From NCBI GenBank assembly GCA_016209685.1, contig JACQVQ010000012.1, forward strand, positions 79,584 to 111,583: a stretch of 32,000 bases of DNA. The letters are read 5' to 3'. The notes below the pieces were generated by a model. That model was not told where the DNA came from, did no database searches, and saw only the letters and a list, made by a program, of their open reading frames with translations. The position numbers and the translations under genes are program-made. This document shows positions 8,501 to 32,000 of this stretch, piece after piece. This DNA comes from Planctomycetota bacterium (GTDB lineage: Bacteria > Planctomycetota > Brocadiia > Brocadiales > Bathyanammoxibiaceae). Positions within the stretch are counted from its first letter, which is position 1. Each line of letters starts with the position of its first letter.

Positions 8501-8591
8501 GCAGTAGGCAGTAGACAGAATACAGTAGACAGTATAAAATCATTCTGTATCCTGACTACTGACTACTGTTTACTGACTACTGTCTACATTT
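8501..8591. repeat. Phased heptamer twin-arm array A (13 x 7 nt)
   Basis: GCAGTAG GCAGTAG ACAGAAT ACAGTAG ACAGTAT | AAAATCA | TTCTGTA TCCTGAC TACTGAC TACTGTT TACTGAC TACTGTC TACATTT. It fills exactly the 91 nt from the narK TAG to the next ATG. Confidence 0.9.
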
Positions 8592-8941: not shown

Positions 8942-10036
8942 ATGAGACACCTTCTTTTCCTTATATCCCTTTCTCTTTTGCCCCTATCAGTGGTAGGGGC
9001 AGACCAGGGAGAGACAGAGAAGTATTACAACCAGGCCCTGGAGTGTTATCAGAAGGGGTCTCTGGAAGAAGGGCTGCAGGCCTGTCAGAGGGCACTTGAA
9101 ATAGAGCCTACCTCGCCAAGGCCACACAACTATATGGGACTGTTTTATAAAAGGATGGGAAAGCTGGATGAGGCCATTAACCAGTTCAAAAAGGCCCTGG
9201 AGCTAGACGCCAACCTCCCTGAGGTCCATGCCAACCTGGGTAACGCATACACGGAGAAAGGCCTTATAGAGGAGTCTATCAAAGAACACCAGGTAGCCGT
9301 AGGACTGAGTCCCGATACGGCAGAACTCCATAATAACCTGGGCTACGCCCTGGAAAAGAGCGGTGAGATAGAGGAGGCAGTGGGCGAGTACCTTCGAGCC
9401 AACAGGCTCAACCCAGACCTGGCCGAGCCCCACGGTAACCTGGGGAGACTGTACCTCAAGAAGAGGATATTTCACAGGGCCATGAGCGAACTGGAAAGGG
9501 CCGTTGAAATCAACCCCTCTCTGGTAGAGTCCCACTACCTCTTGATAGAGGTCTATGTAACAAAGAACGCCCTGGAGAAGGCCACAGGACAGTGTGGGAT
9601 ACTCCTGGAACTAAACCCCAGAGACGCCCGGGCACGTACCCAGTTAGGGATGATACTGGCCAAGAAGGGGCAGACTGAAGGGGCCATCAAAGAGGGGTTA
9701 AAGGCACTGGAAATAGACCCACAACTGGCCGAGGCCCACACCCTCCTGGGAGACCTCTACTCCGCTCAGGGAGATACCGGGGAGGCCCTCAAGAGTTACC
9801 AGTCAGCAATAAAGGCCGACCCGAACTGTGCCGGTGCCCATCTAGGCCTTGCACTCCTCTATAACAAGGCCGGTATGCTTGAAGAGGCCATGGCCTCCTT
9901 TAAAGAGGCCGTCCGTCTTGACCCCGCTAACCCTGAGGCGAGGAAGGGCCTGGGACTGGTCTACGAACTCCTTGGAAAGGGACGGGAGGCAGACGAGGAA
10001 TTTAGGGTCTACGAGGCCCTCATTAGGAAGTCTTAG
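8942..10036 (+). CDS. Secreted TPR-repeat protein
   Basis: Start at the internal ATG 8942 gives the signal peptide MRHLLFLISLSLLPLSVVGA. About 9 tandem 34-aa TPR units follow (e.g. AHNNLGYALEKSGEIEEAVGEYLRANRLNPD). Confidence 0.8.
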   Translation: MRHLLFLISLSLLPLSVVGADQGETEKYYNQALECYQKGSLEEGLQACQRALEIEPTSPRPHNYMGLFYKRMGKLDEAINQFKKALELDANLPEVHANLGNAYTEKGLIEESIKEHQVAVGLSPDTAELHNNLGYALEKSGEIEEAVGEYLRANRLNPDLAEPHGNLGRLYLKKRIFHRAMSELERAVEINPSLVESHYLLIEVYVTKNALEKATGQCGILLELNPRDARARTQLGMILAKKGQTEGAIKEGLKALEIDPQLAEAHTLLGDLYSAQGDTGEALKSYQSAIKADPNCAGAHLGLALLYNKAGMLEEAMASFKEAVRLDPANPEARKGLGLVYELLGKGREADEEFRVYEALIRKS

Positions 10037-10627: not shown

Positions 10628-10981
10628 CTATTTAGGCTCATCGCCCGTGGGGAAGAGCATCAGGTTCGTGTCCTTTACCAGATGGTACATCCTTTTGGCG
10701 TCTAGGAGGGCCTTTTCCTGGGGCACAAGCGGGGTAATCTCTATTTTGGTAAAGAACGGGAAGAGGGGGAGTTTTGTTACGATTGCCTCTATCTCCTCGC
10801 TGGAGTCTGCATCAAAGATGGCGGCGGCGCCGCGCCTACCGGCCAGTTTTCCACCGGCCAGCACCTTCCCTCTCTTCTTCATCCTCTCGTAATACTCCCA
10901 TTCCTTGATGAGCAGTTCAAAGAAACTCCTGGTGGGTATCTGAGGGAGTTTTTCTATCTCAACCTTTACCAGAAAGAGCAT
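10628..10981 (-). CDS. Muconolactone delta-isomerase-like (dimeric alpha+beta barrel) protein
   Basis: MLFLVKVEI...LAGRRGAAAIFDADSSEEIEAIVTKLPLFPFFTKIEITPL parallels CatC (MLFHVKM...LPLFPYMDIEV.PL). ATG at 10981 is preceded by GGAGG. The longer ORF reads through an array. Confidence 0.65.
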   Translation of the reverse strand: MLFLVKVEIEKLPQIPTRSFFELLIKEWEYYERMKKRGKVLAGGKLAGRRGAAAIFDADSSEEIEAIVTKLPLFPFFTKIEITPLVPQEKALLDAKRMYHLVKDTNLMLFPTGDEPK

Positions 10982-10990
10982 GGTTCCTCC

Positions 10991-11053
10991 GAATGAAGAA
11001 TGTGGAATTCGGAATGCGGAATCCCGCATTCGGCAATCTGCAATCCGCAATGA
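10991..11053. repeat. Phased heptamer twin-arm array C (9 x 7 nt)
   Basis: GAATGAA GAATGTG GAATTCG GAATGCG GAATCCC | GCATTCG GCAATCT GCAATCC GCAATGA. It abuts the fabG stop codon. Confidence 0.9.
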
Positions 11054-11797
11054 CTACATGGCCAGGCCGCCGTCTACGTTCAGGACGTGGCCTGTGGTAT
11101 AACTGGAGGCGTCTGAGACCAGAAACGCAACGGCCCTTGCCACCTCCTCTGCCTTACCAACGCGGCCCATGGGGATTAGCTTCAGGGCCTCTTCCATGTA
11201 CTCTTTCTTCAACCCCTGGGTCATCTCCGTGTCTATGAACCCTGGGGCTACGGCATTTACTGAGATATTGAACCTCGCCAACTCCTTGGCGAGGGACTTC
11301 GTGAACCCTATAAGCCCCGCCTTGGAGGAGGCATAATTGGTCTGCCCCATCATCCCTATGATTCCACTTACCGAGGTTATATTTACTATGGAACCACTTT
11401 TTTGCTTCATCATGGGGAACACCACGGCCCTGGTGCAATTGAAGGCCCCGTTCAGGTTGGTATCTATTACCTCCCTCCATTCCTGCTCGCTCATCCTCAT
11501 CATCAGATTATCTCTGGTGACCCCTGCGTTATTTACTAGGATATCTATCTTCCCAAAGTGTTTTATGGCCGTACTGACCATCTCTTTGGACTGATTGAAG
11601 TCTGCTACGTTACTCTGTAGAGGCAGGGCCTTTACGCCGAGGTTACTTAACTCTGTTTCCACCTCCTTGGCCTTCTCTACGTTCTTGGCGAAGCTGAAGG
11701 CCACGTCCACACCTCTCTGGGCCAGTTCCAACACGATAGCCCTTCCTATACCTCGCGTCCCCCCCGTTACGATTGCCACTTTACCTTTTAAGGACAT
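11054..11797 (-). CDS. fabG: 3-oxoacyl-ACP reductase (SDR)
   Basis: 247 aa. TGGTRGIGRAI cofactor motif, NNAG, and catalytic YASSK (YxxxK). FabG length and layout. Confidence 0.9.
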   Translation of the reverse strand: MSLKGKVAIVTGGTRGIGRAIVLELAQRGVDVAFSFAKNVEKAKEVETELSNLGVKALPLQSNVADFNQSKEMVSTAIKHFGKIDILVNNAGVTRDNLMMRMSEQEWREVIDTNLNGAFNCTRAVVFPMMKQKSGSIVNITSVSGIIGMMGQTNYASSKAGLIGFTKSLAKELARFNISVNAVAPGFIDTEMTQGLKKEYMEEALKLIPMGRVGKAEEVARAVAFLVSDASSYTTGHVLNVDGGLAM

Positions 11798-11817
11798 AAA
11801 TAGTCTCCATTCTTTTT

Positions 11818-11889
11818 AGACAATAGACCCTGGACTTTAGACTTTGGACTTCTTACCATTGTCTAAAGTCTAGTGTCAAATGTCCAAGT
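11818..11889. repeat. Phased heptamer twin-arm array B
   Basis: AGACAAT AGACCCT GGACTTT AGACTTT GGACTTC | TTACCAT | TGTCTAA AGTCTAG TGTCAAA TGTCCAA. Between the reductase stop and the fabG start. Confidence 0.9.
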
Positions 11890-13896
11890 TCATATCTCCA
11901 GTGAGACCTTAAAACCCTCGTGGACGGCCTCCATAGCCGTCCTGACCTTTACGCAATCCCCTATCGTATACACCTCCGGCACCAGGCTGTCCAGTTGCTG
12001 ATAAAGGGAATTATTGGGCATGTAACCCGTTGCCAGGATTACCGTCTCGGCCGGTAGGAAGGTCTCCTTACCTTCTTTCTCAAACAAGATTCCACTGGAA
12101 GGCCCTTCTCGTATCTCCTTCACCTTTACCCCTGTCAGAGTCTCTATGCCTGCCTCTTCCATCTCCTGGAGGATGACCCAGCGGGTGGAGAGGCCAAACC
12201 CGCTCCCCACCCTCTTCTTCATCTCCAGTACAGTAACCTTGCGATGACCACGGGTGGTCCTCAGGAGGGCATTAGGGAGGTCAATTACTTGGTTCTTCAG
12301 GAGGAAGAGGGCCACCTCCGGGCTCATACCCCCCAGTTTGGCCGCGTAAAGGGCCACTTCACACCCCACAGACCCTCCCCCTATAATTGCCACAGGATTC
12401 CCCACCGGGACCCTCTTCTCCAGGATATCCCTGGCCAGTACCACGTTCTTCCCCTTTACCCCTGGTATGGGAGGGATTACCGGTAAAGAACCGGTGGAGA
12501 GGATGACTACCTGGGGACGTTCCCTTTCTATAAGCCCTATGTCAACCTTTACCCCTAGATTTACCCTCACCCCTAATTTCGCCAGCTGTCTCTCAAAATA
12601 ATTTATGACGTGCTGAAACTCTCCCCGACCTGGGGGTTTATAGGCATAATGGAGTTGTCCTCCCAGATAGGAGTCGTTCTCGTAAAGGGTCACCTGGTGT
12701 CCCCTCAAGGCGGCCACCCTGGCGGCCTCCATACCACCCGGACCACCCCCGACAATCATTACCTTCTTCTTAACTGGTGACTCCTTGATGACGTATTCCC
12801 TTTCGTGACCTACCTGCGGGTTATAGAGGCAGGAGACAGGTCTCATGTTCAGGAGTTCATCAAAGCATCCCTGGTTGCATGCAATGCACGTCCTGATGTC
12901 CTCCCATCTGCCTTCTTGGTATTTTTTGGGTAGTTCCGGGTCTGCGATGAGGGGGCGGCCCACTGCTATGAGGTCTGCCTGACCATCCATGAGGAGTTCT
13001 TCAGCCACTGCCAGGTCGTTTATCCTCACCCCTGCTATGACAGGGAGGTTGACGTTTTCCTTAATAGACGAGGCCAGGAAGGTATAGGCCATCCGTGGGA
13101 TGGCCATGACCATTATAGGGGTCTTGCTCTCGTGCCACCCTGGGGAGACGTGAAAGGCATCTACCCCGACCCGGGCGAGTTCCACGGCAATCTCTATGTT
13201 CTCATTTATTCTGTTCCCCCCCTTCATGAGTTCATCCCCGGAGAGCCTGAAGATAATGGGAAAGTCCTTGCCCGCCAGTTCCTTCGTCGCCTGCACCACC
13301 TCTTTGGCGAATCTGAGCCGACCCTGGAGGTCTCCTCCATACTCGTCTTCTCTCTGGTTGGTTATGAGGGATAGGAATTGGTTTATCAGGTAACCCATCC
13401 CGCCGTGTATCTCTACGGCGTCAAAGCCTGCCTCCCTGGCCCTGAGGGCGGCCCTGGCGTAGCTGGTTATTATCTCCTTTATCTCAGGGATGGTGAGTGG
13501 TCTGGGGACGTCCCTGGCAAGGCGGGTGGGGACGCTGGAGGCAGAGACGGGTTGCCTCTTAGTGAAGAGGCTGGAGGCATAGCGGCCCCCATGAAGGAGT
13601 TGGGGGGCGGTCTTTGCCCCGAGCAGGTGCATTGCCTCGGTAAACCTTCTAAGGCCTGGGATATAGCGGTCATCGTCCAGGCCGAGGATACTCTTCCATG
13701 CCTTACCGCTCTCATGGGGGTAACAACCCCCTATTATTATGAGCGCCACGCCGCCCTTCGCCCTCTCGGCGTAAAAATCTATGAAGCGGTCGTTGACGAA
13801 GCCATCGGTAGAGAAGCCCACGTCCATGGCCGTCATGACCAGACGGTTCTTGAGTTCCAGGGGGCCAATGTTTGTACGGTCAAAAAGGCTTATCAT
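11890..13896 (-). CDS. FadH-like 2,4-dienoyl-CoA / enoate reductase (OYE FMN domain, 4Fe-4S, FAD/NAD(P) domain)
   Basis: N-terminal LFDRTNIGPLELKNRLVMTAM (OYE). CIACNQGC...C cluster motif. VMIVGGGPGGMEAA Rossmann motif. I prefer the ATG at 13896; the alternative GTG at 13917 lies inside a REP palindrome. Confidence 0.85.
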   Translation of the reverse strand: MISLFDRTNIGPLELKNRLVMTAMDVGFSTDGFVNDRFIDFYAERAKGGVALIIIGGCYPHESGKAWKSILGLDDDRYIPGLRRFTEAMHLLGAKTAPQLLHGGRYASSLFTKRQPVSASSVPTRLARDVPRPLTIPEIKEIITSYARAALRAREAGFDAVEIHGGMGYLINQFLSLITNQREDEYGGDLQGRLRFAKEVVQATKELAGKDFPIIFRLSGDELMKGGNRINENIEIAVELARVGVDAFHVSPGWHESKTPIMVMAIPRMAYTFLASSIKENVNLPVIAGVRINDLAVAEELLMDGQADLIAVGRPLIADPELPKKYQEGRWEDIRTCIACNQGCFDELLNMRPVSCLYNPQVGHEREYVIKESPVKKKVMIVGGGPGGMEAARVAALRGHQVTLYENDSYLGGQLHYAYKPPGRGEFQHVINYFERQLAKLGVRVNLGVKVDIGLIERERPQVVILSTGSLPVIPPIPGVKGKNVVLARDILEKRVPVGNPVAIIGGGSVGCEVALYAAKLGGMSPEVALFLLKNQVIDLPNALLRTTRGHRKVTVLEMKKRVGSGFGLSTRWVILQEMEEAGIETLTGVKVKEIREGPSSGILFEKEGKETFLPAETVILATGYMPNNSLYQQLDSLVPEVYTIGDCVKVRTAMEAVHEGFKVSLEI

Positions 13897-13907
13897 CTTT
13901 TTAAGCA

Positions 13908-13935
13908 GTAGGGGCACGGCATGCCGTGCCCCTAC
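13908..13935. repeat. REP-like perfect palindrome, GTAGGGGC subtype, inside the operon
   Basis: gtaggggcacggcatgccgtgcccctac, a 28-nt perfect palindrome between the KS-partner stop and the reductase start. Confidence 0.8.
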
Positions 13936-13947
13936 ATTCCTGGGTGT

Positions 13948-15219
13948 TTACTGTTGGTTCCTCTTCAGGACTAAACAAGAGCCATTTCCTGCAGGGTCTA
14001 GAGAGTTTACCATAGCAGAGCGTATGTCTATTTGTAGTGCCTTCTTTGTAACCAGGTTGAGGTTACATTCGGGGTCGGGGTCTTCCAGGTTGGCGATAGG
14101 TGGGACGAGGGAATTTTCCATGGCCAATACACATGAGACCACCTGCAAAGCACCGGCGGCACCGTAGCACTCTCCGGCAAGGGGTTTTACGGAGGTCACT
14201 AACGCCTTCTTTGAGGAGTCCCCGGAGAGGCCCTTGATTGCCCTGGCCTCTATCATATCCAGGAGATTACTGGAGTTCCCATTGGCATAGATGAGATCCA
14301 GGGACTCGCCAGAGAGGGACCCGTCCTCCAGGGCTAGTTCCATAACCCTTTGTGCCCTGCTGATTTTTTCTTCCAGGCTGAACCTGTTACTCCCTATATA
14401 GGTGGTGCCGTAGCCTACCACTTCTCCGTATATCTTTACCCCTCTACTGCGGGCTGACTCCAGTTCCTCCAGGATGACTACGTAGCCCCCCTCGCCGAGG
14501 ACGAAGCCATTTCTGTGCCTGCCAAAGGGCCTGCTCAGTTCAGGCCCAGAGTTATTGGAACCCGACAGGAGTCCCTGCAGGAGGAATATGAGGTAGCTGT
14601 CCAGCGATAACTGCTCCACCCCACCTGCGATTAGGAGGTTGTCCCTGCCGCTCCTGATGAGGTTAAAGGCGTTGCCTATGGCATCCATGCTGGAAGTGAA
14701 ACCAGAGGAGATGGTCCTGGAAGGGCCCTTTAGTTTGAAGAATACGGAGGCAAAATTGATGGAGGAGTTGAGGGCCACGTCAAAGCTGGCCATGGGTAAT
14801 AGCTTTTCAGGGCCCAGCTTAAAGATGTTATAGGTATAGTCAGTAGTCTGGGAGTAGTTGCCCAGTGCAGAGCCTATTATAACCCCTGCATGTTCAGGAA
14901 AATGTCCGTTGGTATTGAGGCGGGCATCCTCCAGTGCCATCTTAATGGCTGAGGTAAGGAACTTAGTGCCTTTCGTGAGGTACTTGAGGCCCTTGTCCCC
15001 CAGGTAGTCTGCAGGATTAAAACCCTTGACCTCGGCGGCCAGCTTGCAGGGGTAGGAGGTAACGTCTATGGAGGCTATAGGGGCAACCCCCGAGCGGCCT
15101 TCTACCAGATTCGTCCAGAACTCTTGACGGCCAATGCCCAGGGGTGAGACGATACCGATACCGGTTATTGCTACCCTCTTCCTTACGTCTGCCTGCCCTG
15201 CTCCATTAGGTTGAGTCAT
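13948..15219 (-). CDS. Ketosynthase-like partner subunit lacking the Cys-His-His triad (CLF/KS-beta-like)
   Basis: Thiolase-fold KS homologue. TISSGFTSS (Phe where KS has Cys), ANGNSS (Asn for His), AGECYGAAG (Glu for His). 2-nt gap to the upstream KS. Confidence 0.85.
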   Translation of the reverse strand: MTQPNGAGQADVRKRVAITGIGIVSPLGIGRQEFWTNLVEGRSGVAPIASIDVTSYPCKLAAEVKGFNPADYLGDKGLKYLTKGTKFLTSAIKMALEDARLNTNGHFPEHAGVIIGSALGNYSQTTDYTYNIFKLGPEKLLPMASFDVALNSSINFASVFFKLKGPSRTISSGFTSSMDAIGNAFNLIRSGRDNLLIAGGVEQLSLDSYLIFLLQGLLSGSNNSGPELSRPFGRHRNGFVLGEGGYVVILEELESARSRGVKIYGEVVGYGTTYIGSNRFSLEEKISRAQRVMELALEDGSLSGESLDLIYANGNSSNLLDMIEARAIKGLSGDSSKKALVTSVKPLAGECYGAAGALQVVSCVLAMENSLVPPIANLEDPDPECNLNLVTKKALQIDIRSAMVNSLDPAGNGSCLVLKRNQQ

Positions 15220-15221
15220 TG

Positions 15222-16457
15222 CTAAATAACACTTCCTCTTTCTACGGGCAGGTGTACCCTACCAAAGACAACACTGGCATTATTGCCGCCGAAGGCAAAG
15301 GAGTTATTCAAGGCATAATTTGTCTTACACTCCCTGGCCTGGTTAGGGACGCAGTTAAGGTTACATTCGGGGTCTTCGGTCTCATAATTAATCGTGGGGG
15401 GGATAGCCCCTTCTTTTATGGCCATACAGCAGACTATGGATTCAATGGCGCTGGCCGCCCCCATGGTATGCCCTATCATGGATTTTACGGAACTACAAGG
15501 TATATCCTGTGCCATCTCCCTGAAGACAGTTTGAAGGGCCAGGGTCTCCATCTTGTCATTGAGGGGCGTACCGGTGCCGTGGGCGCTTATGTAGTCAATG
15601 TCTTTGTAGGAAAGTCCGGCTGAGGCAAGGGCCACCTCCATAGCCCTCATCGGTCCCTCTCCACTGGGGTGAGGGGCTGTCATGTGGTAGCCGTCACTGC
15701 TGAGGCCGTATCCCCTCACTTCTGCGTATATCTTGGCATCTCTCCTGTGAGCCAGCTCCATAGATTCCAGTATGAGGACCCCTGCCCCTGCCCCCACCAC
15801 CAATCCCTGGCGGTTCTTATCAAAGGGCTGGCATTTCTCGGGGGCCAGGGACTTCAGGTTGTGGAAGTGAGTAAATTCCGTCTGTGGCACTACGTCACTC
15901 CCTCCCACTATCATGGCGTCTACCTTGCCCTCCCGTATGGCATCAAAGGCCCAGCTGATTGCGTGGTTACCTGAACTGCAGGCATTGATGAGGATAATGT
16001 TGGGCCCTTCCATGTGGAACTCTTCTGCCAGTTGGGTGGAGAGAGTCATGGGTGGATAGCTCAGGGCCACCTCTATATCAAATCCGTCTGCCTTGTTCAG
16101 GTGGTGGTTCCTCAGCCTCTGTTCAAACAGGGAGAGTTCGCCGGCAAGGGTACCTATTGAGACACCAACCCTGTCCCGTCTCAAGGGTTCATAGCCGTCC
16201 AGACCACTGTCTTCCAGGGCCTCTCTGGCCGATGCCAGTAGACAATCATACACGGTGAAAGGCTTTTTCGTGATTATGTGGCCGTTGAAGTTCAATTTCT
16301 TCACCTCGCAGGCCCGGTGGACCTTGTACCTGGAGGTATCAAAGGAGGTTATCTCTGAGATGCCGTCTTTACCAGCTAACATTGCCTCCCAGGATTCTTT
16401 TACGTTGGCACCGAGGGCTGTTACTAGACCTATACCTGTTACTACTACTCTCCGCAT
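15222..16457 (-). CDS. Beta-ketoacyl-ACP synthase, FabF/KS-alpha-like, catalytically intact
   Basis: INACSSGNHAI (active Cys), SAHGTGTPLND and GHTMGAASA (both His) are present. 411 aa. Confidence 0.9.
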   Translation of the reverse strand: MRRVVVTGIGLVTALGANVKESWEAMLAGKDGISEITSFDTSRYKVHRACEVKKLNFNGHIITKKPFTVYDCLLASAREALEDSGLDGYEPLRRDRVGVSIGTLAGELSLFEQRLRNHHLNKADGFDIEVALSYPPMTLSTQLAEEFHMEGPNIILINACSSGNHAISWAFDAIREGKVDAMIVGGSDVVPQTEFTHFHNLKSLAPEKCQPFDKNRQGLVVGAGAGVLILESMELAHRRDAKIYAEVRGYGLSSDGYHMTAPHPSGEGPMRAMEVALASAGLSYKDIDYISAHGTGTPLNDKMETLALQTVFREMAQDIPCSSVKSMIGHTMGAASAIESIVCCMAIKEGAIPPTINYETEDPECNLNCVPNQARECKTNYALNNSFAFGGNNASVVFGRVHLPVERGSVI

Positions 16458-16468
16458 ACTAACCCCTT

Positions 16469-17944
16469 TTATGTCTTTGTAGCCATTAGGTTGGTGGGCT
16501 CATCGTATCTCTGTTTTTTGCCGATACGCTCAAGGGCAGCCTCATACACCCCAGAGGCCTGAAGGGTCTTCAGATTTTCCAACAAATGTTTGAATACGTT
16601 CCGCCAGTCCCAATTTACCTTCAAGGCGAAGAGGGCAGAATTGTTGTTCTGGAGGACGTCTCTTGAGTTCTGGAAGCGTTTCCTTATGACCTCAGTAGAG
16701 TAGAGCTTGTTATAAAGTTTTTGCATCCCGTCAACGAGTTCCGGGAGGGAGAGTTTCTTCAGGATATACACAAGGTGGTGGGAGGTGTAGTAAATCCAGT
16801 CCTCGGGGAAGTGATTGCGGAACAGCCTGTTGTCTGACTCCAGCCGCTTGTACAGCGGGGTATTGATGAAGGGGCAGAGGATACCACAGGTCATAATATC
16901 TATCTGGGAGTTCAGGATGAAGTCTGCTACCTCGTCAAAGGTCTCCGTGGTGTCGGTATCGTTGCCGAAGATGAAGGTACCCCAGACGGCTATGCCGTGT
17001 TTGCGGATGTTCTTGACTGCCTCGTAGTACCTTTCAATGGTAATCCGCAAGTTCACGTTTTTGTTCATGGAGTAGAGGGCATCCTTGTTGAGGGATTCTA
17101 TGCCGATGAGTACCCCCACACAACCGCTCCTGACCATGTAGTCCAGGGTCTCGTCGTCCTTGTAGATGTTAAGGGAGGTGAAGCCGAACCAGTTCTGATA
17201 TATCCCCCTTTCCACCATGCCCTTAAAGAGGTCTCTTACCCTATCATTTGATTTTTTGCTGTGGCCATAGAAGTTTTCGTCCGTAAGGACAAGTCCCCTG
17301 TACTGCCCCTTTATGGCCGCAAACTCGTTCAAGACGTCCCCAATGGGTCTCTCTCTATATTTCTGCCCCTGAAACTGGGGTACGGAACAGAATTCGCAAC
17401 TGAATGGACATCCCGCCGTAGTGATGATACCAGAATAGCGGTACTTGTATTTTGCCTTCAGGAAATCCCTGGCAGGGTAAAGACCGTTAAGGTTCTCCAG
17501 GGGCGTCAGCCCCCCGTCGTAACGCTTCTGGAGTTGCCCGCACTCAAAGTCAGCCAGTAACCTTCCCCATATTGAGATAGCCTCTTTTGTAACTACGCAG
17601 TCTACGTGTTGGGCAACTTCGTGGGGATATATGGTGGCATGGACCCCACCCATTACTACAGGAATGCCCCTTTTCTTACAGGCATGGGCAATGGCATAGG
17701 CCCGTGGTGCCTGATAGCTTACAGACGTTATCCCAACCAGGTCTGCCCCCTGGAAAGCCAACTGGTTATTTGCATCTAATGCAAGCTCCGTGGTCTCATC
17801 TATAACGTCCACCTCCCAGTGTTCGGGCATAAGGGTTATCAGGTAACCCAGATTTACAGGCATCTGATTGAGCACCGACACATTCTCTTCCCCCACGTTT
17901 CCTATGGGGTGAGGGTTTATGAGTACGAGCTTTCTCTTCTTCAT
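16469..17944 (-). CDS. Class B (B12-binding domain) radical SAM enzyme
   Basis: N-terminal Rossmann-like B12-binding region (LVLINP...DLVGITS...VVMGGVH). CPFSCEFC is the Cx3Cx2C motif. 491 aa. Confidence 0.85.
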   Translation of the reverse strand: MKKRKLVLINPHPIGNVGEENVSVLNQMPVNLGYLITLMPEHWEVDVIDETTELALDANNQLAFQGADLVGITSVSYQAPRAYAIAHACKKRGIPVVMGGVHATIYPHEVAQHVDCVVTKEAISIWGRLLADFECGQLQKRYDGGLTPLENLNGLYPARDFLKAKYKYRYSGIITTAGCPFSCEFCSVPQFQGQKYRERPIGDVLNEFAAIKGQYRGLVLTDENFYGHSKKSNDRVRDLFKGMVERGIYQNWFGFTSLNIYKDDETLDYMVRSGCVGVLIGIESLNKDALYSMNKNVNLRITIERYYEAVKNIRKHGIAVWGTFIFGNDTDTTETFDEVADFILNSQIDIMTCGILCPFINTPLYKRLESDNRLFRNHFPEDWIYYTSHHLVYILKKLSLPELVDGMQKLYNKLYSTEVIRKRFQNSRDVLQNNNSALFALKVNWDWRNVFKHLLENLKTLQASGVYEAALERIGKKQRYDEPTNLMATKT

Positions 17945-17956
17945 CTTCTCTCTCTT

Positions 17957-18343
17957 TTAAGGGATTTTTGGAACTCGGGATTCGGAATTGGGCATGAGGA
18001 GCACCTGGGCAATGGCATAGTCCTTTGTATGAGTTAGGGAGACTTCACAGTTACCAATCCCCTTCGCATCCGCACGCTCCTTTGCCCTTCCGTAGAGCTG
18101 CAGGTAAGGGCGGCCAGTGGGGTCGTTAAGCAGTTCTATATCCTTCCAACCTGCCCCCCCTCCTAAAGCCTTAATAACTGCCTCTTTTGTGGCAAATCTT
18201 GCGGCTAGGTGCTGGAACCTGTTCTTCCTGTTCCGACAATACTCTACTTCTTTAGGGGTATAAATACGGTTCAGAAAAGATTCATTGCGGGAGAAGAGGT
18301 CTTCTATCCTCTTCACCTCCACCAAATCTATTCCTATGTACAC
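17957..18343 (-). CDS. acpS: Holo-ACP synthase (4'-phosphopantetheinyl transferase)
   Basis: MYIGIDLVEVKRIE...FATKEAVIKALG...SLTHTKDYAIAQVLL. GTG start. The last 12 or so codons (MPNSESRVPKIP) are encoded by GGAAYYC heptamer words. Confidence 0.85.
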   Translation of the reverse strand: MYIGIDLVEVKRIEDLFSRNESFLNRIYTPKEVEYCRNRKNRFQHLAARFATKEAVIKALGGGAGWKDIELLNDPTGRPYLQLYGRAKERADAKGIGNCEVSLTHTKDYAIAQVLLMPNSESRVPKIP

Positions 18344-18429
18344 CCCTCTAAAATCCTCTCCTTATGCTTTGAAAAAAATTCTACTCAGTGTGCCAGAGAT
18401 TGTCAACCACAATTTCCTGGGGGCTTCTG

Positions 18430-18457
18430 TTGACTATATCAGTAGATAAAATATAAT
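18430..18457 (+). promoter_or_regulatory. Sigma70-type promoter reading into array D and the MATE gene
   Basis: TTGACT (18430-18435), 16-nt spacer, TATAAT (18452-18457). Confidence 0.5.
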
Positions 18458-18466
18458 GCCCCAATT

Positions 18467-18613
18467 GAATGCGGAATTGGGAGTGCGGAATGCGGAACAT
18501 TCTAAATGTAGAGTGCGGATTTCGGAATGCGGAATTAAAACAACTCCGCACTCAGCACTCCGCATTCCGCACTCCGCATTCTGTACACTCAGCACTCCGC
18601 ATTCCGCATTGAC
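18467..18613. repeat. Phased heptamer twin-arm array D (21 x 7 nt)
   Basis: Ten G-rich words (GAATGCG GAATTGG GAGTGCG GAATGCG ...CGGAATG CGGAATT), centre AAAACAA, ten complementary words (CTCCGCA CTCAGCA CTCCGCA TTCCGCA ... CATTCCG CATTGAC). It ends 1 nt before the MATE ATG. Confidence 0.9.
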
Positions 18614-18614
18614 A

Positions 18615-19964
18615 ATGCTCCCACTGGAACTCACGGAAAAAAACCTTAACAGGAACATCGCCCGCCTTGCCATCCCTGCCGCCGCAGAAAATGTCCTCCA
18701 CATGTTGGTCTTCATCGTGGACATTATTATGGTGGGCAGGCTGGGGACAGAGGCAATAGCCTCTGTGGGGCTTGCTGGTGCCCTGAATTTTGTCCTTACC
18801 ATAGTCTTCTCCTCCCTATCAGCCGGGACCTTGAGCCTGGTAGCCCGACATACCGGGGCAAGAGAAAGGTCTATGGCAGAGAGGGTTGCCGCCCAGTCCC
18901 TCCTCCTTTCTATAGTAGTAGGGGTCACGGTAGCCCCGGCCCTATTTCACTACTCCGACGGCATCTTTCACCTCATGGGTGCAGAGCCTGAGGTGCTGAG
19001 GCTGAGTACCCTCTATTTCACCATAGTGATATGCTTCCTGCCCTGCAGGTTGATAATCCTCACCAGCAGTGCATCCCTCAGGGGTGCAGGGGACACACGT
19101 ACCCCCATGCTTATAACCCTGGTCATGAACCTCACCAACGTATTCTTTAACTGGTTGCTAATATTTGGTATATGGATATTTCCCAGGATGGGGGTGGCGG
19201 GGGCGGCCTGGGGTACCGTCATTGCCTATATGGTAGGCGCCACCCTGAGTCTGGCCATCCTTTTTAGGGGAAAGGCCCTGGTGACGTTACACCTGAGGGA
19301 TATGATGGGTTTTGACACGGGAGTAATAAAGAGGGTACTCTGGATATCCCTCCCTGCCACCCTGGATGCCTTGCTCATGCAAATGGGCTATCTGGTGTTT
19401 ATCAAGATAGTTACCATGCTTGGGACAGCGTCTCTGGCCGCCCACCAGATTGCCGTAAGGATAGAATCCATCTCCTTCATGCCCGGCTATGCCCTTGGGA
19501 TGTCCACCGCCACCCTGGTAGGGCAGAGCTTGGGGGCAAAAAAGGAAGACCTGGCCCGTTTGAGCATGAAGAGGAACTGTCTCTTTGCCCTCCTCCTTAT
19601 GTGTACCTTCGGGGTAATCTTCCTGATTATGCCTAGACAATTGGGCATGATATTTGGCCCGGAAGAGGAGGTGCTCCGCCTATCCAGCCTCTGTGTGATG
19701 ATATCTGCCATAGAGCAACCTGCCCTGGCCATCTACATGGTCTATGCAGGGGGTCTACGGGGGGCAGGGGATACCATGAGCCCAATGCTAATCACCATAG
19801 TGGGGACGTTATTCTTTCACCTCCCCATGGCCTATATATTTGGTATAGTCATGGGCTGGGGACTGGCGGGGATATGGTTTGGGGCCGCCCTGGACTGGAT
19901 AGGCCGTGCTATCGCCGTGTACATACTCTTCCGCCGGGGGAGGTGGCGGAGGCTAAAAATGTAG
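18615..19964 (+). CDS. MATE-family efflux transporter
   Basis: Starts at the internal ATG 18615 (MLPLELTEKNLNRNIARLAIPAAAENVLHMLVFIVDIIMVGRLG, a typical MATE N-terminus), with 12 predicted TM segments. The ORF-track start at 18456 translates array D. Confidence 0.85.
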   Translation: MLPLELTEKNLNRNIARLAIPAAAENVLHMLVFIVDIIMVGRLGTEAIASVGLAGALNFVLTIVFSSLSAGTLSLVARHTGARERSMAERVAAQSLLLSIVVGVTVAPALFHYSDGIFHLMGAEPEVLRLSTLYFTIVICFLPCRLIILTSSASLRGAGDTRTPMLITLVMNLTNVFFNWLLIFGIWIFPRMGVAGAAWGTVIAYMVGATLSLAILFRGKALVTLHLRDMMGFDTGVIKRVLWISLPATLDALLMQMGYLVFIKIVTMLGTASLAAHQIAVRIESISFMPGYALGMSTATLVGQSLGAKKEDLARLSMKRNCLFALLLMCTFGVIFLIMPRQLGMIFGPEEEVLRLSSLCVMISAIEQPALAIYMVYAGGLRGAGDTMSPMLITIVGTLFFHLPMAYIFGIVMGWGLAGIWFGAALDWIGRAIAVYILFRRGRWRRLKM

Positions 19965-20152: not shown

Positions 20153-20229
20153 GGGCGATTAGCTCAGTTGGCTAGAGCGCTTGCTCGACAAGCAAGAGGT
20201 CAGTGGTTCAAGTCCACTATCGCCCACCA
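20153..20229 (+). tRNA. tRNA-Val (anticodon GAC), CCA encoded
   Basis: Hand-folded cloverleaf: GGGCGAT/ATCGCCC acceptor, GCTC-AGTTGGCTA-GAGC D arm, CTTGC-TCGACAA-GCAAG anticodon arm, AGGTC variable, AGTGG-TTCAAGT-CCACT T arm, then A-CCA. 77 nt. Confidence 0.9.
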
Positions 20230-20230
20230 T

Positions 20231-20270
20231 GTTCCGAATGTGGAATTCGGAATGCGGAATTTGGAATGTT
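20231..20270. repeat. Heptamer array F (single arm), ending at the thrS ATG
   Basis: ..GAATGTG GAATTCG GAATGCG GAATTTG GAATGTT|ATG. 20236-20260 is identical to 10998-11022. Confidence 0.85.
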
Positions 20271-22193
20271 ATGGTTAAGATTAGGTTACCTGACGGCGTA
20301 GAAAAGACTTATAGGGAAAATACTACTGTAGGGCAGATTGCCAGAGACCTTGGAGAGTCCTGCTATAGTAAGGCGGTTGCAGGAAAGACTAACGGCACCC
20401 TGGTAGACCTCAGTTTTCCCCTCACAAAGGATACCACCCTATCTGTCATCACTGAGGATACCCCCGAGGGATTAGACATCCTCCGCCACAGTACAGCCCA
20501 TATAATGGCACAGGCAGTGCAGAGACTCTTTCCTGAGGCAGAGTTGGGGATAGGGCCTACTATAGAGAATGGCTTTTATTATGACTTCCGCCTGGAGAGG
20601 CCATTAACCCAGGAAGACTTGGAAAAGATAGAGGCCGAGATGGGGAAAATTATAAAGGAAGACCTGGCCTTCCAGAGACAGCTCTTTCCTCGCCGGGAGG
20701 CCATAACCAGGATGGAAGAGATACGACAACCGTTCAAGGTAGAACTCCTCAAAGATATAGAGGAAGAGACGGTCAGCCTCTACACCCAGGGGGAATTCCT
20801 TGACCTCTGTCGTGGACCGCACCTCTTCACCACAGGTCGGGCAGGGGCCTTCAAGCTCCTCAACGTGGCCGGGGCATACTGGCGGGGCAAGGAAACTAAC
20901 CCCATGCTCCAGCGCATCTACGGCACCGCCTTTTTTAGTAAGGAGGAGTTGGATAGATACCTGCACCTCCTGGAAGAGGCAAAGAAGCGGGACCACAGGA
21001 AGCTGGGAAGGGAGCTGGATCTGTACAGCTTCAGAGAGGAGTGTGGTCCCGGCCTAGTCCTCTGGCACCCAAAAGGGGCCCGTATCAGGAACGTCATAGA
21101 AAGGTTCTGGTCCGAAGAGCACTACAAAAGGGGTTACGAGATTGTCTATAGCCCCCATATAGCCAGGGCCAGTCTCTGGCATACCAGTGGACACTGGGAC
21201 TTCTACCGCCAGAGCATGTTTGCACCCTTTGAGCTAGAGACAAGCCAATACTTAGTGAAGCCCATGAACTGCCCCTTTGCCGTACTCATCTTCAAGTCAG
21301 ACATGAGGAGCTACCGAGACCTCCCCATCCGGTTTGCCGAGCTAGGGACGGTATATCGCTACGAACGCTCGGGGGTACTCCACGGTCTCCTCAGGGTAAG
21401 GGGGTTCACCCAGGATGATGCCCATATCTTCTGTACACCCGAACAGTTAGAAGGAGAGATACTAGGGGTCATAAACCTGGCCCAGTACATGCTCTCCTCC
21501 TTCGGGTTCAAGGAATACGAAATAGAGCTGGCCGTCAGGGGGAAGGGGGAAAAGGACAAATATATCGGGAGTGATGGGAATTGGGAGTTGGCCGAGACGG
21601 CCCTTAGGCGGGCACTTGAGTCCAAGGACCTCCCCTTCGTAGTAGGTGAAGGAGAGGCCAAGTTTTACGGGCCCTCCATAGACATAAGGATAAAAGACGC
21701 CCTGGGTAGGGGTTGGCAGGGGCCCACTATACAGGTAGATTTCAACCTCCCAGAGAGGTTTGACGTCAACTACATAGGCCCGGACGGTAAAGAGCACAAG
21801 GTAGTAATGATTCACCGCACGGTGCTGGGTGCCCTGGAGCGATTCCTGGGATGTCTAATAGAGCATTACAGCGGGGCATTCCCCCTGTGGATAGCCCCGG
21901 TACAGATAAAGATACTCACCATAAAGGATACCCACGCCGATTACGCCCACAGTCTGAAGACCCGATTGGAAGAAAAGGGTATCAGGGTCCAGTGTGACCT
22001 CAGAAATGCAACCGTCGGTTACAAAATCAGGGAGGGGAGGACAGAGAAAGTGCCCTACCTCCTGATTATCGGTGACAAAGAGGTAGAAGAAGGTACAGTC
22101 TCCCTCAGGAGCCGGGAGAAAGGAGACGAAGGTCGTCTCCCCCCAGACGCCCTTCTGGCACGTCTGGAAAGGGAAGTCAGGGAAAGACTCTAA
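20271..22193 (+). CDS. thrS: Threonyl-tRNA synthetase
   Basis: MVKIRLPDG (TGS domain), HSTAHIMAQA editing-domain motif, HRKLGRELDL, class II core, C-terminal anticodon-binding domain. The ORF-track start at 20181 lies inside the tRNA gene. Confidence 0.95.
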   Translation: MVKIRLPDGVEKTYRENTTVGQIARDLGESCYSKAVAGKTNGTLVDLSFPLTKDTTLSVITEDTPEGLDILRHSTAHIMAQAVQRLFPEAELGIGPTIENGFYYDFRLERPLTQEDLEKIEAEMGKIIKEDLAFQRQLFPRREAITRMEEIRQPFKVELLKDIEEETVSLYTQGEFLDLCRGPHLFTTGRAGAFKLLNVAGAYWRGKETNPMLQRIYGTAFFSKEELDRYLHLLEEAKKRDHRKLGRELDLYSFREECGPGLVLWHPKGARIRNVIERFWSEEHYKRGYEIVYSPHIARASLWHTSGHWDFYRQSMFAPFELETSQYLVKPMNCPFAVLIFKSDMRSYRDLPIRFAELGTVYRYERSGVLHGLLRVRGFTQDDAHIFCTPEQLEGEILGVINLAQYMLSSFGFKEYEIELAVRGKGEKDKYIGSDGNWELAETALRRALESKDLPFVVGEGEAKFYGPSIDIRIKDALGRGWQGPTIQVDFNLPERFDVNYIGPDGKEHKVVMIHRTVLGALERFLGCLIEHYSGAFPLWIAPVQIKILTIKDTHADYAHSLKTRLEEKGIRVQCDLRNATVGYKIREGRTEKVPYLLIIGDKEVEEGTVSLRSREKGDEGRLPPDALLARLEREVRERL

Positions 22194-22952: not shown

Positions 22953-23050
<98 letters not shown>

Positions 23051-23071: not shown

Positions 23072-23428
23072 ATGACCAGAGCAATGAAAGGGGCCGCCAG
23101 AAAACAGGCCAGGAAGAAGGTCCTTAAGGCGGCCAAGGGTTTTTGGGGGGGAAGGAGTAAACTCTACAGAAAGGCCAAGGAGACCCTCCTGAGGGCCGGG
23201 GCTTACGCCTACCGCGACCGCAGGACAAGAAAGCGGAATATCAGGAGTCTGTGGATTGTCCGCATCCATGCTGCGGCCATGCAAAGGGGACTCTCTTACA
23301 GCCAGCTCATGGGTGGCCTCGCAAAGGCCGGACTGGATATAAACAGAAAACTCCTGTCCGACATGGCCATCAATGACGCCAAAGGTTTTGACCAACTGGT
23401 ACAGACTGCCCGTGCCAATATAGGCTAA
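23072..23428 (+). CDS. rplT: 50S ribosomal protein L20
   Basis: ARKKVLKAAKGFWGGRSKLYRKAKETLLRAGAYAYRDRR..., AAGGAGG SD. Confidence 0.95.
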   Translation: MTRAMKGAARKQARKKVLKAAKGFWGGRSKLYRKAKETLLRAGAYAYRDRRTRKRNIRSLWIVRIHAAAMQRGLSYSQLMGGLAKAGLDINRKLLSDMAINDAKGFDQLVQTARANIG

Positions 23429-23540
23429 GGGAGTAGGGGGTAGGGAGTAGAAACACATTAAATTGCAAATTTTAAATTTAAAATTTCTAATTTACAATTT
23501 CTAATTCCTTTAACCCCTAGTCCCTAGCCTCTAACCCCTA
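23429..23540. repeat. Phased heptamer array H (16 x 7 nt)
   Basis: GGGAGTA GGGGGTA GGGAGTA GAAACAC ATTAAAT TGCAAAT TTTAAAT TTAAAAT TTCTAAT TTACAAT TTCTAAT TCCTTTA ACCCCTA GTCCCTA GCCTCTA ACCCCTA. It fills exactly the gap from the rplT TAA to the galU ATG. Confidence 0.9.
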
Positions 23541-31966: not shown

Positions 31967-32000
31967 GGTAACAGATTTCTACCTGTTACCTGTTACCTGT
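31967..32000. repeat. Heptamer array J (truncated by the window edge)
   Basis: ggtaacag-atttcta-CCTGTTA CCTGTTA CCTGT..., upstream of nadC. Confidence 0.7.

Follow-up and report, generated by a model that had tools for sequence, protein, structure and literature searches.

The genes kuste2802-2805 of Kuenenia stuttgartiensis encode a holo-ACP synthase (acpS), a B12-binding radical SAM enzyme, a FabF and a non-canonical 'FabB', and form a candidate cluster for ladderane biosynthesis (Rattray et al., 2009, PMC2649909; Javidpour et al., 2016, PMC4790861). The published description of this cluster ends at these four genes; when they were expressed in E. coli, most of the protein was insoluble and no new fatty acid appeared. 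Cluster I (kuste3603-3608) encodes amxACP, amxFabZ, amxFabFmut, amxFabF2, a phytoene-desaturase-like enzyme and a B12-binding radical SAM enzyme (bioRxiv 10.64898/2026.05.19.726425). The same study described amxFabF2 and amxFabFmut as a ketosynthase (KS)/chain-length-factor-like heterodimer that decarboxylates malonyl-ACP and prefers the dedicated amxACP, with Iga11 as the closest structural homologue of amxFabF2.

Here we analysed a 32,000-nucleotide stretch of DNA (the window), which belongs to a member of the anammox class Brocadiia and shares about 95% DNA identity with groundwater Brocadiia genomes of the Ca. Tripitaka/Hypogeohydataceae group. It carries a minus-strand operon with the gene order acpS, B12-binding radical SAM, KS, dead KS, FadH-type reductase, fabG and muconolactone-isomerase (MIase)-like gene. 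Judged by their sequences, the first four genes are orthologues of kuste2802-2805, with the same genes, the same order and the same Phe/Asn/Glu states in the dead KS; identity to the Brocadia counterpart is 65% for acpS, 71% for the radical SAM enzyme, 56% for the KS and 51% for the dead KS. The initial annotation had pointed to a ladderane proposal for radical SAM plus multi-FabF clusters, and this proved correct, as the orthologous genes are those of that very proposal. Unlike the K. stuttgartiensis cluster, the window has three more co-directional genes downstream. The extended operon thereby adds a FadH-type reductase, a FabG and a MIase-like protein as candidates to a long-suspected ladderane cluster, three enzyme genes that are kept here while the model organism is without them at this locus.

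Organization of the operon

The following features were located, in the order of transcription of the operon and followed by its upstream neighbourhood:

17957..18343, minus strand: acpS, holo-ACP synthase, 128 aa, the first gene of the operon (Pfam ACPS, E 6e-21)
16469..17944, minus strand: B12-binding radical SAM enzyme, 491 aa, with B12-binding, radical SAM core and DUF4070 domains; orthologue of kuste2803
15222..16457, minus strand: active KS, 411 aa, Cys-His-His intact; orthologue of kuste2804
13948..15219, minus strand: dead KS, 423 aa, Cys to Phe, His to Asn and His to Glu; orthologue of kuste2805
11890..13917, minus strand: FadH-type reductase, 675 aa, with FMN, 4Fe-4S and FAD/NADPH domains (Oxidored_FMN and Pyr_redox_2)
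11815..11851: array of 5.3 copies of the heptamer TTTAGAC, between the reductase gene and fabG
11054..11797, minus strand: FabG-type 3-oxoacyl-ACP reductase, 247 aa (TIGR01830, 327 bits, equivalog cut-off 298)
10998..11051: two adjoining heptamer arrays, GAATGCG (3.6 copies) and CCGCAAT (4 copies), between fabG and the MIase-like gene; initially read as a palindrome
10628..10981, minus strand: muconolactone-isomerase-fold protein, 117 aa from the predicted ATG at 10981 (Pfam MIase, E 1.5e-14)
18378..18406, minus strand: promoter-like site, TTGACA, 17-nt spacer, TAGAAT (11 of 12 consensus matches), 35 nt upstream of acpS
18467-18608: heptamer arrays upstream of the operon
18456..19964, plus strand: divergent MatE-family transporter (Pfam MatE, E 1e-62)

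All seven co-directional ORFs of the initial annotation are present, its spacing of 12, 11 and 2 nt between the first four genes matches the ORF coordinates, and its enzyme identities were borne out by strong Pfam and NCBIfam domain calls. Further downstream the gaps measure 30, 92 and 3 nt, the last becoming 72 nt with the corrected start of the MIase-like gene. The claimed absence of ACP, acyltransferase and FabZ/FabA genes from the window also held in Pfam searches of the larger ORFs, and tblastn of the window with E. coli AcpP as query gave a best match of only E 0.27. The operon is flanked by housekeeping genes.

The acpS product scored 94 bits against TIGR00516 (cut-off 60), and acpS is the leading gene in most of the complete orthologous loci. 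Because kuste2802, its Kuenenia counterpart, is the sole acpS of the K. stuttgartiensis genome, the phosphopantetheinyl transferase of the operon is probably the general AcpS of the genome and not a dedicated enzyme. The position of the promoter-like site fits an operon promoter; the site is called from its consensus match alone, and the region has no more such sites than expected from shuffling.

The heptamer arrays described before are real, and further ones lie upstream of the operon. The reported REP palindrome turned out to be one of many intergenic heptamer arrays across the whole window and is not specific to the operon; the array between the reductase gene and fabG belongs to the same class. 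Since the 5' end of the MatE ORF falls within such arrays, its true start probably lies near 18615. The gene has the same divergent position in the clade of the window and in Scalindua loci, making the transporter a conserved neighbour but not necessarily a member of the pathway.

The ketosynthase pair and the radical SAM enzyme

Both KS domains were found in each of the two ketosynthase-like proteins. As initially annotated, the first protein retains Cys-His-His and in the second, whose start codon lies 2 nt past the KS stop codon, all three catalytic residues are replaced, by the same residues as in Kuste2805 (Phe163, Asn298, Glu333). The best solved relative of the KS is 9s5h_B, amxFabF2 (420 bits, 48% identity); we take PDB 9S5H to be the amxFabF2/amxFabFmut heterodimer. 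The KS is 41% identical to B. subtilis FabF and scored 424 bits against the canonical FabF model, below the cut-off of 494. It also matched the ishigamide KS 6kxd (289 bits) and the cispentacin AmcF model (250 bits, cut-off 325). The dead KS shares its Asn and Glu ('GECY') states with amxFabFmut, 9s5h_C, and its search matches were only Brocadiia relatives (51-97% identity). With amxFabF2 and amxFabFmut as its best solved relatives, the pair falls outside housekeeping FabF, of which anammox genomes have a separate canonical copy. By analogy with amxFabF2 and amxFabFmut, and in line with the 2-nt spacing of the two genes, KS and dead KS would form a KS/chain-length-factor-like heterodimer.

In the radical SAM enzyme the predicted Cx3Cx2C motif was found as CPFSCEFC, together with the Radical_SAM, B12-binding and DUF4070 domains. 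All of its orthologues (64-98% identity) come from Brocadiia, and its identity to the Cluster I-type radical SAM enzyme of anammox bacteria amounts to 42-51%. No curated NCBIfam model was matched above its cut-off; TIGR04072, for example, gave 74 bits versus 360.

The three-gene extension

The reductase aligned over its full length with E. coli 2,4-dienoyl-CoA reductase 1ps9 (E 1.8e-130), and equivalents of Tyr166 and His252 are retained, as is the CIACNQGC...C cluster motif. Its gene is next after the dead KS gene in the 7- and 8-gene loci, and FabG is kept in the extended loci at 50-97% identity.

The MIase-like protein scored 41 bits against TIGR03221, under the cut-off of 131. In its AlphaFold2 model (pLDDT 90) the predicted MIase fold was confirmed, with ClcF and muconolactone isomerase as best fold matches (TM 0.80-0.87). 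The fold of the annotated protein stood; its start at 11050 (a 140-aa TTG ORF), which runs into the repeat array, probably does not. As a GGAGGA ribosome-binding site precedes the ATG at 10981 and the homologues are 103-124 aa long, this ATG is most likely the start. The protein is 61-82% identical across anammox lineages. The family has 74 members found, most of them unnamed; every organism name attached is Brocadiia or Planctomycetota, and no Kuenenia or Brocadia name is among them.

Conservation and linkage to Cluster I

Conservation of the cluster extends to 75 species-level loci, which are labelled as Brocadiia or unresolved Planctomycetota-type except for a mis-binned contig and another whose origin is uncertain; all anammox genomes surveyed have the cluster. 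In three loci (L003, L005, L006) the same seven genes lie between different flanking genes. About 25 Scalindua-type loci, as well as Jettenia ecosi, have an 8-gene form that includes a crotonase gene; in the Scalindua-type versions the crotonase would supply the missing dehydratase. Locus L062 is without acpS and the radical SAM gene and combines KS, dead KS, reductase, crotonase, FabG and MIase-like genes. In L087 the gene order differs, and the set comprises radical SAM, KS, dead KS, MIase-like, crotonase and SDR genes. Together these loci speak for a link between the core genes and the extension.

Early-branching lineages retain the reductase-FabG-isomerase extension, of which no literature account was found. 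At this locus it is absent from many Brocadia genomes and from Kuenenia hertensis, which have the four core genes only. Ladderanes have been reported from four anammox genera, Kuenenia and Brocadia among them (Rattray et al., 2008). Given these four-gene loci, and the lack of Kuenenia- or Brocadia-named MIase-like homologues among the mostly unnamed members found, the extension may be dispensable for ladderane formation itself.

In L006 and L017 Cluster I genes lie 1-3 kb downstream of the module, and in two other organisms (L089, L087) the module and Cluster I are fused in one co-directional array. Such contiguity argues for one shared pathway. Both fused loci encode their own ACPs, and the paralogous anammox KS pair prefers the dedicated amxACP, so that use of the housekeeping ACP, as first suggested, is unlikely.

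Proposed pathway and alternatives

We think it reasonably probable that the operon is an extended, apparently ancestral form of the anammox acpS/radical SAM/KS/dead KS cluster, working with Cluster I on lineage-specific acyl chains, most plausibly ladderane lipids. The earlier suggestion of a specialised lipid or reduced-polyketide pathway gains support from the kuste2802-2805 orthology, the Brocadiia host, the placement of the KS pair and the conservation in 75 loci. From gene content, orthology, catalytic-residue states and conserved synteny we infer the following steps. AcpS would produce holo-ACP, and the KS/dead KS heterodimer would prime and elongate an acyl chain that is carried by a dedicated ACP, whose gene would lie elsewhere. 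FabG would reduce the 3-keto group, and a dehydratase (presumably the operon crotonase in Scalindua, and an enzyme encoded elsewhere for the window) would give enoyl or dienoyl intermediates. The FadH-type flavoenzyme could then reduce a conjugated double bond adjoining the thioester, and the isomerase-fold protein may move a double bond. The radical SAM enzyme might carry out a radical C-H functionalisation, in the form of either C-C bond formation or methylation, and the module and its paralogue Cluster I would jointly yield the final chains. Related modules in GC-rich genomes unlike those of anammox bacteria (L084 59% GC, L087 65%, L085 69%) count against a ladderane product, as no ladderanes are known from such organisms.

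Characterised B12-binding radical SAM enzymes are mostly methyltransferases, and anammox bacteria have abundant branched fatty acids, 10-methylhexadecanoic acid being typical. The module could accordingly be thought to make such mid-chain methyl-branched fatty acids, with the radical SAM enzyme methylating an unactivated carbon and the KS pair, FabG and reductase supplying or finishing the chain. Methylation was among the options first listed, the enzyme has the B12-binding and radical SAM architecture, and its top partial NCBIfam matches include the methyltransferases PhpK and HpnR and the Mmp10-type model TIGR04014. However, these matches are far under their cut-offs (64-97 bits versus 360-650) and the non-methylating BchE, HpnJ and AprD4 score about equally. 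We consider this product unlikely, as it leaves the KS/dead-KS pair, the dienoyl-type reductase, the isomerase-fold protein and the tight linkage to Cluster I unexplained.

A highly reducing type II polyketide-like pathway to a non-membrane product, such as an exported polyene or a small carbocycle, would agree with the 6kxd and AmcF matches of the KS, with the conserved MatE neighbour, with the MacB-type transporter genes at the end of the fused L087 cluster and with the dehydratases of L087 and L089, which match the aryl-polyene ApeP/ApeI-like families. It is nevertheless rather improbable in our view: the operon is headed by what is probably the only AcpS of the cell, its presence in all surveyed anammox genomes is more in keeping with a core membrane function than with an accessory metabolite, and no thioesterase, ligase or secondary-metabolism tailoring genes were found in the window. 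That variant housekeeping fatty acid synthesis genes are merely grouped with acpS, and yield no special product, seems very unlikely. In its favour, the flanking genes are housekeeping, and acpS and a FabG that exceeds its equivalog cut-off both belong to ordinary type II fatty acid synthesis. Against it, the KS scores too low for a canonical FabF and has a catalytically dead partner, anammox genomes have a separate canonical FabF, and the radical SAM enzyme, dead KS and MIase-like protein proved nearly confined to Brocadiia, with a few related clusters as the exception.

Comparison with known systems

Like Cluster I, the operon combines a radical SAM enzyme, an active KS and a dead KS, and these trios are paralogous: the KS is 48% identical to amxFabF2, and the dead KS has the His to Asn and His to Glu changes of amxFabFmut. 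The Cys position, in contrast, is Phe in the window and Val in amxFabFmut, with an overall identity of only 34%. AcpS, FadH-type reductase, FabG and MIase-like protein (in some lineages also crotonase) stand against the ACP, FabZ and phytoene-desaturase-like enzyme of Cluster I.

Highly reducing type II PKS-like systems (ishigamide Iga11/Iga12, aryl polyenes, cispentacin AmcF/AmcG) similarly pair an active KS with an inactive KS-like partner and use a FabG-type ketoreductase, a dehydratase and ACP-bound chains. They are without the B12-binding radical SAM enzyme, FadH-type reductase and MIase-fold protein of the window, whose KS is under the AmcF cut-off (250 bits versus 325). Actinorhodin-type chain length factors have Gln at the Cys position, where the window partner has Phe.

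The reductase resembles E. coli FadH (1ps9) in its architecture over the full length, in its Fe-S motif and in the conserved catalytic Tyr and His, but acpS and the KS pair as operon partners give it a biosynthetic setting. It is grouped with a crotonase-family enzyme, an SDR and an isomerase-fold protein, which parallels the reductase/isomerase/hydratase/dehydrogenase set that acts on conjugated enoyl thioesters in the beta-oxidation of unsaturated fatty acids, although the isomerase of the window has a muconolactone-isomerase fold and not a crotonase fold.

Gene content of the operon

All seven minus-strand ORFs proposed in the initial annotation were found where it had placed them: acpS, a B12-binding radical SAM gene, a ketosynthase (KS) gene, a KS homologue with all three catalytic residues replaced (dead KS), a FadH-type reductase gene, fabG and a muconolactone isomerase (MIase)-like gene. 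The gaps of 12, 11 and 2 nt between the first four genes were borne out by the coordinates. The accompanying reading, a pathway for a specialised lipid or reduced polyketide, was supported, and clusters of this kind are already known. We found that the operon is the extended form of a known, biochemically uncharacterised cluster kind, with the first four genes as the core and the reductase, FabG and MIase-like genes as an extension, joined in some genomes by a crotonase gene.

AcpS passed the model TIGR00516 (94.4 bits, cut-off 59.8). The radical SAM enzyme has an N-terminal B12-binding domain (PF02310, 37.5 bits, cut-off 32.1), predicted to bind cobalamin, followed by a radical SAM core (PF04055, 69.8 bits) with CPFSCEFC as its CX3CX2C motif and by DUF4070 at the C terminus; these domain and motif calls agree with the class B (cobalamin-dependent) architecture proposed earlier. 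The reductase, of 675 aa, is predicted to comprise an FMN (OYE) domain, a 4Fe-4S site and an FAD/NADPH domain (Pfam, NCBIfam). It aligned end to end with E. coli FadH (1ps9), and the equivalents of Tyr166 and His252 (in GYLINQF and GWHE) as well as the Fe-S cysteines (CIACNQGC...C) are kept, so that at the sequence level the predicted enzyme has the domains, cysteines and Tyr/His residues of a FadH-type 2,4-dienoyl-CoA reductase. FabG, an SDR, passed the equivalog model TIGR01830 (327.3 bits, cut-off 297.75).

As had been noted, the window was found to contain no ACP, acyltransferase or FabZ/FabA gene (Pfam on the larger ORFs and tblastn with E. coli AcpP), and the AcpP query gave no match in the window (best E 0.27) or in 83 related loci from other genomes. 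An Rfam search of the window returned tRNA-Val only, with no cobalamin riboswitch or other element before the operon. The genes flanking the operon are housekeeping genes, encoding FeoB, an MFS transporter, a TPR protein, MatE, tRNA-Val, ThrRS, IF3, RF2, SHMT, GpsA and NadC.

The MIase-like gene and its fold were present as annotated, with a revised start: ATG 10981, giving 117 aa, is preferred over 11050 and is probably the true start, since a GGAGGA ribosome-binding site precedes it and the homologues measure 103-124 aa. The protein stayed below the cut-off of the muconolactone delta-isomerase model TIGR03221 (41.1 bits, cut-off 130.6) and passed only the fold-level Pfam model (54.4 bits, cut-off 26.7). 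Its AlphaFold2 model (pLDDT 90) has the ferredoxin-like MIase fold, with ClcF and 1mli as the top Foldseek matches (TM 0.80-0.87, rmsd 1.4-2.0 Å). In muconolactone isomerase Glu27 is catalytic, and the PDB holds an E27A mutant of ClcF. Glu27-Trp28 is nearly invariant in the MIase-like family, the alignment to P0314, a sequence of the true MIase type, being off by one residue at a loop gap. We found 74 members of the family, and those with an organism name are all labelled Brocadiia or Planctomycetota; across anammox lineages they are 61-82% identical, better conserved than the dead KS. At two further loci (L084, 8551-10363; L085, 8547-10309), in GC-rich genomes unlike anammox bacteria in appearance, a MIase-like gene is kept together with genes for FabH and a small 2x[4Fe-4S] ferredoxin, which suggests that the function of this isomerase-fold subfamily is linked to fatty acids.

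Heptamer arrays and other features of the window

Many of the intergenic gaps of the window are filled by tandem heptamer arrays.

Tandem heptamer arrays in the window
8498-8587, heptamer array
10998-11051, heptamer array
11815-11851, heptamer array
18467-18608, heptamer array
20232-20268, heptamer array
22955-23050, heptamer array
23428-23541, heptamer array
29951-30025, heptamer array
31980-32000, heptamer array

The arrays are often paired, adjacent ones having roughly complementary units, and such pairs could form long imperfect hairpins. In a MAG with about 95% DNA identity to the window (locus L011, with an array at 9488-9576, for example) the arrays lie at the same places with different heptamer units, and the alignments to the window break exactly at the array gaps, which indicates that the arrays are hypervariable between near-conspecific genomes. 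Of the REP palindrome and heptamer arrays annotated in the operon, the arrays were confirmed; the palindrome proved to be an array of the kind found throughout the window. We therefore rejected both as regulators of the operon, as the same kind occurs window-wide and varies between near-identical genomes.

The longest-ORF starts of the MatE and MIase-like genes extend into arrays, at 18456-18614 and 10982-11050, and the peptides translated there ('AECGVRNAE/SAFRIPHS') are artefacts; the true MatE start is probably near 18615. The longest ThrRS ORF (20181-22193, TTG start) begins inside tRNA-Val (GAC, 20153-20229); thrS must in fact start beyond both the tRNA and the array at 20232-20268. The RF2 ORF (27625-28557) matches the Pfam PCRF profile only from position 49 onwards, and upstream of the ORF the sequence CTTTGAC occurs at 27480-27486 in the RF2 reading frame; the two features taken together are evidence for the classic programmed +1 frameshift site known from prfB. 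Between 24650 and 27268 the GC content falls to 41-46%, from about 52%, and the genes in this stretch, for an LA2681-like HEPN protein with TPR repeats and for a HepT-like ribonuclease, probably make up a small toxin-antitoxin or defence islet.

Host and identity of the core genes

Judging from its sequence relatives, the host is a member of the anammox class Brocadiia. The MAGs RIFCSPHIGHO2_12_FULL_52_36 and Yes70-17 share about 95% DNA identity with the window, and the 90%-identity protein cluster of the dead KS has members named Ca. Tripitaka, a genus in the recently proposed groundwater anammox family Hypogeohydataceae, and Brocadiales. No hydrazine synthase gene lies inside the window, which thus gives no direct evidence of anammox metabolism. 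In the protein search the relatives of the dead KS came from Brocadiia only, with identities of 97% to Rifle groundwater MAGs, 79% to Ca. Hypogeohydataceae and 51-53% to Scalindua, Brocadia and Jettenia. A scan of 185,579 species genomes gave 75 loci, titled Brocadiia or unresolved Planctomycetota-type with two exceptions (L060 and L062). The title 'Thermodesulfobacteriota' of L060 was rejected: with a crotonase sharing 90% identity with the Scalindua japonica enzyme, the contig is probably mis-binned Scalindua.

The window has acpS, the B12-binding radical SAM gene, the FabF-like KS gene and the non-canonical KS gene in co-directional order, and the same order was found in two Brocadia loci (L001 and L002) and in most loci long enough to show it. 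This Brocadia-type order is that of kuste2802-2805 of Kuenenia stuttgartiensis. In the alignment the first KS of the window was intact (Cys-His-His) and the second dead, as annotated, with Phe, Asn and Glu in place of Cys, His and His; the dead KS of Brocadia and of Scalindua have the same residues, and the pattern is exactly that of kuste2805, which is listed as a non-canonical 'FabB' with Phe163, Asn298 and Glu333 (Rattray et al. 2009, Table 2, PMC2649909). In the same study kuste2802 was the only acpS of the K. stuttgartiensis genome and kuste2803 was named as a candidate for radical cyclisation. Expression of the four genes kuste2802-2805 in E. coli gave mainly insoluble proteins and no new fatty acids (Javidpour et al. 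2016, PMC4790861).

We used tblastn to survey 83 related loci for the core and extension genes. The four core genes were found in all lineages surveyed. In the clade of the window (Hypogeohydataceae, JP1 and the Rifle MAGs) the reductase, FabG and MIase-like genes follow the dead KS, while the genes flanking these seven-gene loci differ widely. In Scalinduaceae and Jettenia ecosi the operon has eight genes, crotonase lying between reductase and FabG, and several Brocadiaceae have only the reductase and crotonase of the extension. In many Brocadia, in Loosdrechtia and in Kuenenia hertensis none of the four extension genes was found within 10 kb of the core. The three extra genes of the window are a conserved part of the operon, and in the literature searched we found no paper linking these extension genes to ladderane clusters.

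The ketosynthase pair and the radical SAM enzyme

An active Cys-His-His KS adjoining a triad-less homologue is the arrangement of KS/chain-length-factor pairs; here the two genes are 2 nt apart. Neither protein reached the cut-off of the canonical FabF model TIGR03150 (493.75 bits), the KS scoring 423.7 bits and the dead KS 322.4 bits; the KS passed only the broader subfamily model NF005589 (408.8 bits, cut-off 387). It is 48% identical to amxFabF2, the KS of the anammox Cluster I (amxACP, amxFabZ, amxFabFmut, amxFabF2, a phytoene-desaturase-like gene and a radical SAM gene), and 41% identical to B. subtilis FabF. The dead KS has the His to Asn and His to Glu ('GECY') states in common with amxFabFmut, at an identity of only 34%. 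Chain length factors of the actinorhodin type carry Gln where an active KS has its Cys. The dead KS has Phe and no Gln in this column, and is in this respect more like amxFabFmut (Val) than the classical chain length factors.

In a preprint of May 2026, amxFabF2 and amxFabFmut were reported to form a heterodimer like a ketosynthase/chain-length-factor pair, which decarboxylated malonyl-ACP and favoured C6-C8 acyl probes on amxACP in crosslinking (bioRxiv 10.64898/2026.05.19.726425). The best solved-structure matches of the window proteins were chain B (KS, 420 bits) and chain C (dead KS, 275 bits) of PDB 9s5h. This code is not cited in the preprint itself, and we assigned the entry to it by residue pattern, as chain C has the Val/Asn/Glu pattern of amxFabFmut. 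Given the match to these two chains and the paralogous Cluster I pair, we infer by analogy that chain length would be set by the window KS and dead KS acting as a physical heterodimer.

Orthologues of the radical SAM enzyme are 64-98% identical to it, and a second tier at 48-58% includes one K. stuttgartiensis protein; compared directly, window-type and Cluster I-type enzymes are 42-51% identical. These tiers, together with the KS and radical SAM identities, show that radical SAM enzyme, KS and dead KS are a module duplicated with Cluster I. Membership of TIGR04072 (rSAM_ladder_B12, lipid biosynthesis B12-binding/radical SAM) was rejected for the window enzyme (74.3 bits, cut-off 360), and the Cluster I-type enzymes also stayed below this cut-off (62-78 bits); the model is for another radical SAM family. 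A PDB search returned distant matches only (AprD4 and a tryptophan methyltransferase), with no functional clue. A third, stand-alone B12-binding radical SAM paralogue, 54% identical to the window enzyme, was seen in Brocadiia bacterium JP1 (L088, 10001-14327), adjoining MlaD/MlaE/ABC lipid-transport genes on the opposite strand.

Linkage to Cluster I

At two loci (L006 and L017) Cluster I genes for the radical SAM enzyme, phytoene-desaturase-like enzyme and KS lie 1-3 kb downstream of the operon, on the other strand. In L089 (2119-14797; SRR13254584, 55% GC) both modules form a single co-directional array.

Gene order in L089, 2119-14797, all genes co-directional
Gene 1, ACP
Gene 2, FabZ-like dehydratase
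Gene 3, KS, 64% identical to amxFabF2
Gene 4, dead KS, 57% identical to amxFabFmut
Gene 5, phytoene-desaturase-like enzyme
Gene 6, radical SAM enzymes (n=3)
Gene 7, KS, 58% identical to the window KS
Gene 8, dead KS, Phe/Ala/Glu at the triad positions
Gene 9, crotonase, followed by the contig end

A similar contiguous super-cluster was found in L087 (2457-20017; GCA_037446155.1, 65% GC). Both have a Cluster I-type ACP, FabZ-like dehydratase, KS pair and radical SAM gene, with or without the phytoene-desaturase-like gene, and in addition crotonase, another KS pair and two further radical SAM genes; L087, with two ACPs in all, also has FabH, AcpS, a MIase-like protein (50% identical), an SDR and MacB-type transporter genes. 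In L084 (GCA_008501825.1, Planctomycetota, 59% GC) FabH, ferredoxin and MIase-like genes are accompanied nearby by radical SAM, KS, truncated KS-like and SDR genes. L062 (8682-15313), from a MAG titled Blastocatellia, has KS, dead KS, reductase, crotonase, FabG and MIase-like genes, with no acpS or radical SAM gene upstream and with aspartokinase and M50 peptidase genes as flanks; it is either a true occurrence outside anammox bacteria or a binning error. The recurrent linkages in varied gene orders are the strongest evidence that core and extension cooperate, in a pathway common with Cluster I. The clusters also show that such modules are not strictly limited to recognised anammox bacteria.

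Proposed pathway and significance

In the mechanism that we propose as the most likely, AcpS would activate ACPs, and the KS/dead-KS heterodimer would prime and elongate a chain on a dedicated ACP encoded elsewhere, most likely of the amxACP type since the fused clusters have their own ACPs. The 3-keto group would be reduced by FabG, and a dehydratase, which the window operon lacks and for which the crotonase may serve in Scalindua, would give enoyl or dienoyl thioesters. The FadH-type enzyme would reduce a conjugated double bond, the isomerase-fold protein may shift the remaining one, and the B12-binding radical SAM enzyme would carry out a radical step on the chain.

The working assumption in the field is that such modules serve ladderane synthesis. 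Dietl et al. favour separate pathways for the linear and the ladder portions of the lipid, a scheme that a second radical SAM and KS-pair module would fit. A ladderane role calls for caution. Related clusters occur in genomes that are not anammox-like in appearance, and the extension is missing at the locus, perhaps altogether, in K. hertensis and many Brocadia, whereas ladderanes are reported from four anammox genera including Kuenenia and Brocadia (Rattray et al. 2008). Mid-chain methyl-branched fatty acids are a live alternative as the product of the operon, because most known B12-binding radical SAM enzymes are methylases. A bolder reading of the ladderane assumption, which we offer tentatively and consider rather unlikely, is that the operon and Cluster I are halves of one ancient cluster, fused in L089 and L087, and that the reductase, crotonase, FabG and isomerase-fold protein supply the missing steps to ladderanes or related strained-ring lipids. 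The extension genes would then have escaped the earlier candidate lists because these drew on Kuenenia, whose operon is truncated. If this were true, non-anammox carriers of fused clusters would make ladderane-like or otherwise radically cyclised lipids, and could be more tractable for solving the pathway.

Ladderane biosynthesis has been an open question since 2002: ring formation still has no assigned enzyme, and anammox bacteria lack a genetic system. The window alone leaves this question unsolved; the comparison with the known systems yields three leads absent from the literature searched, which give a bigger and sharper gene set for reconstitution as well as alternative source organisms. 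The cluster kuste2802-2805 appears to be the remnant of a longer, ancestral seven- or eight-gene operon that also encoded a dienoyl-type reductase, crotonase, ketoreductase and isomerase-fold protein; radical SAM enzyme, KS and dead KS together are a duplicated module common to this operon and Cluster I; and some genomes, GC-rich ones unlike anammox bacteria in appearance among them, carry the two modules as one contiguous stretch.
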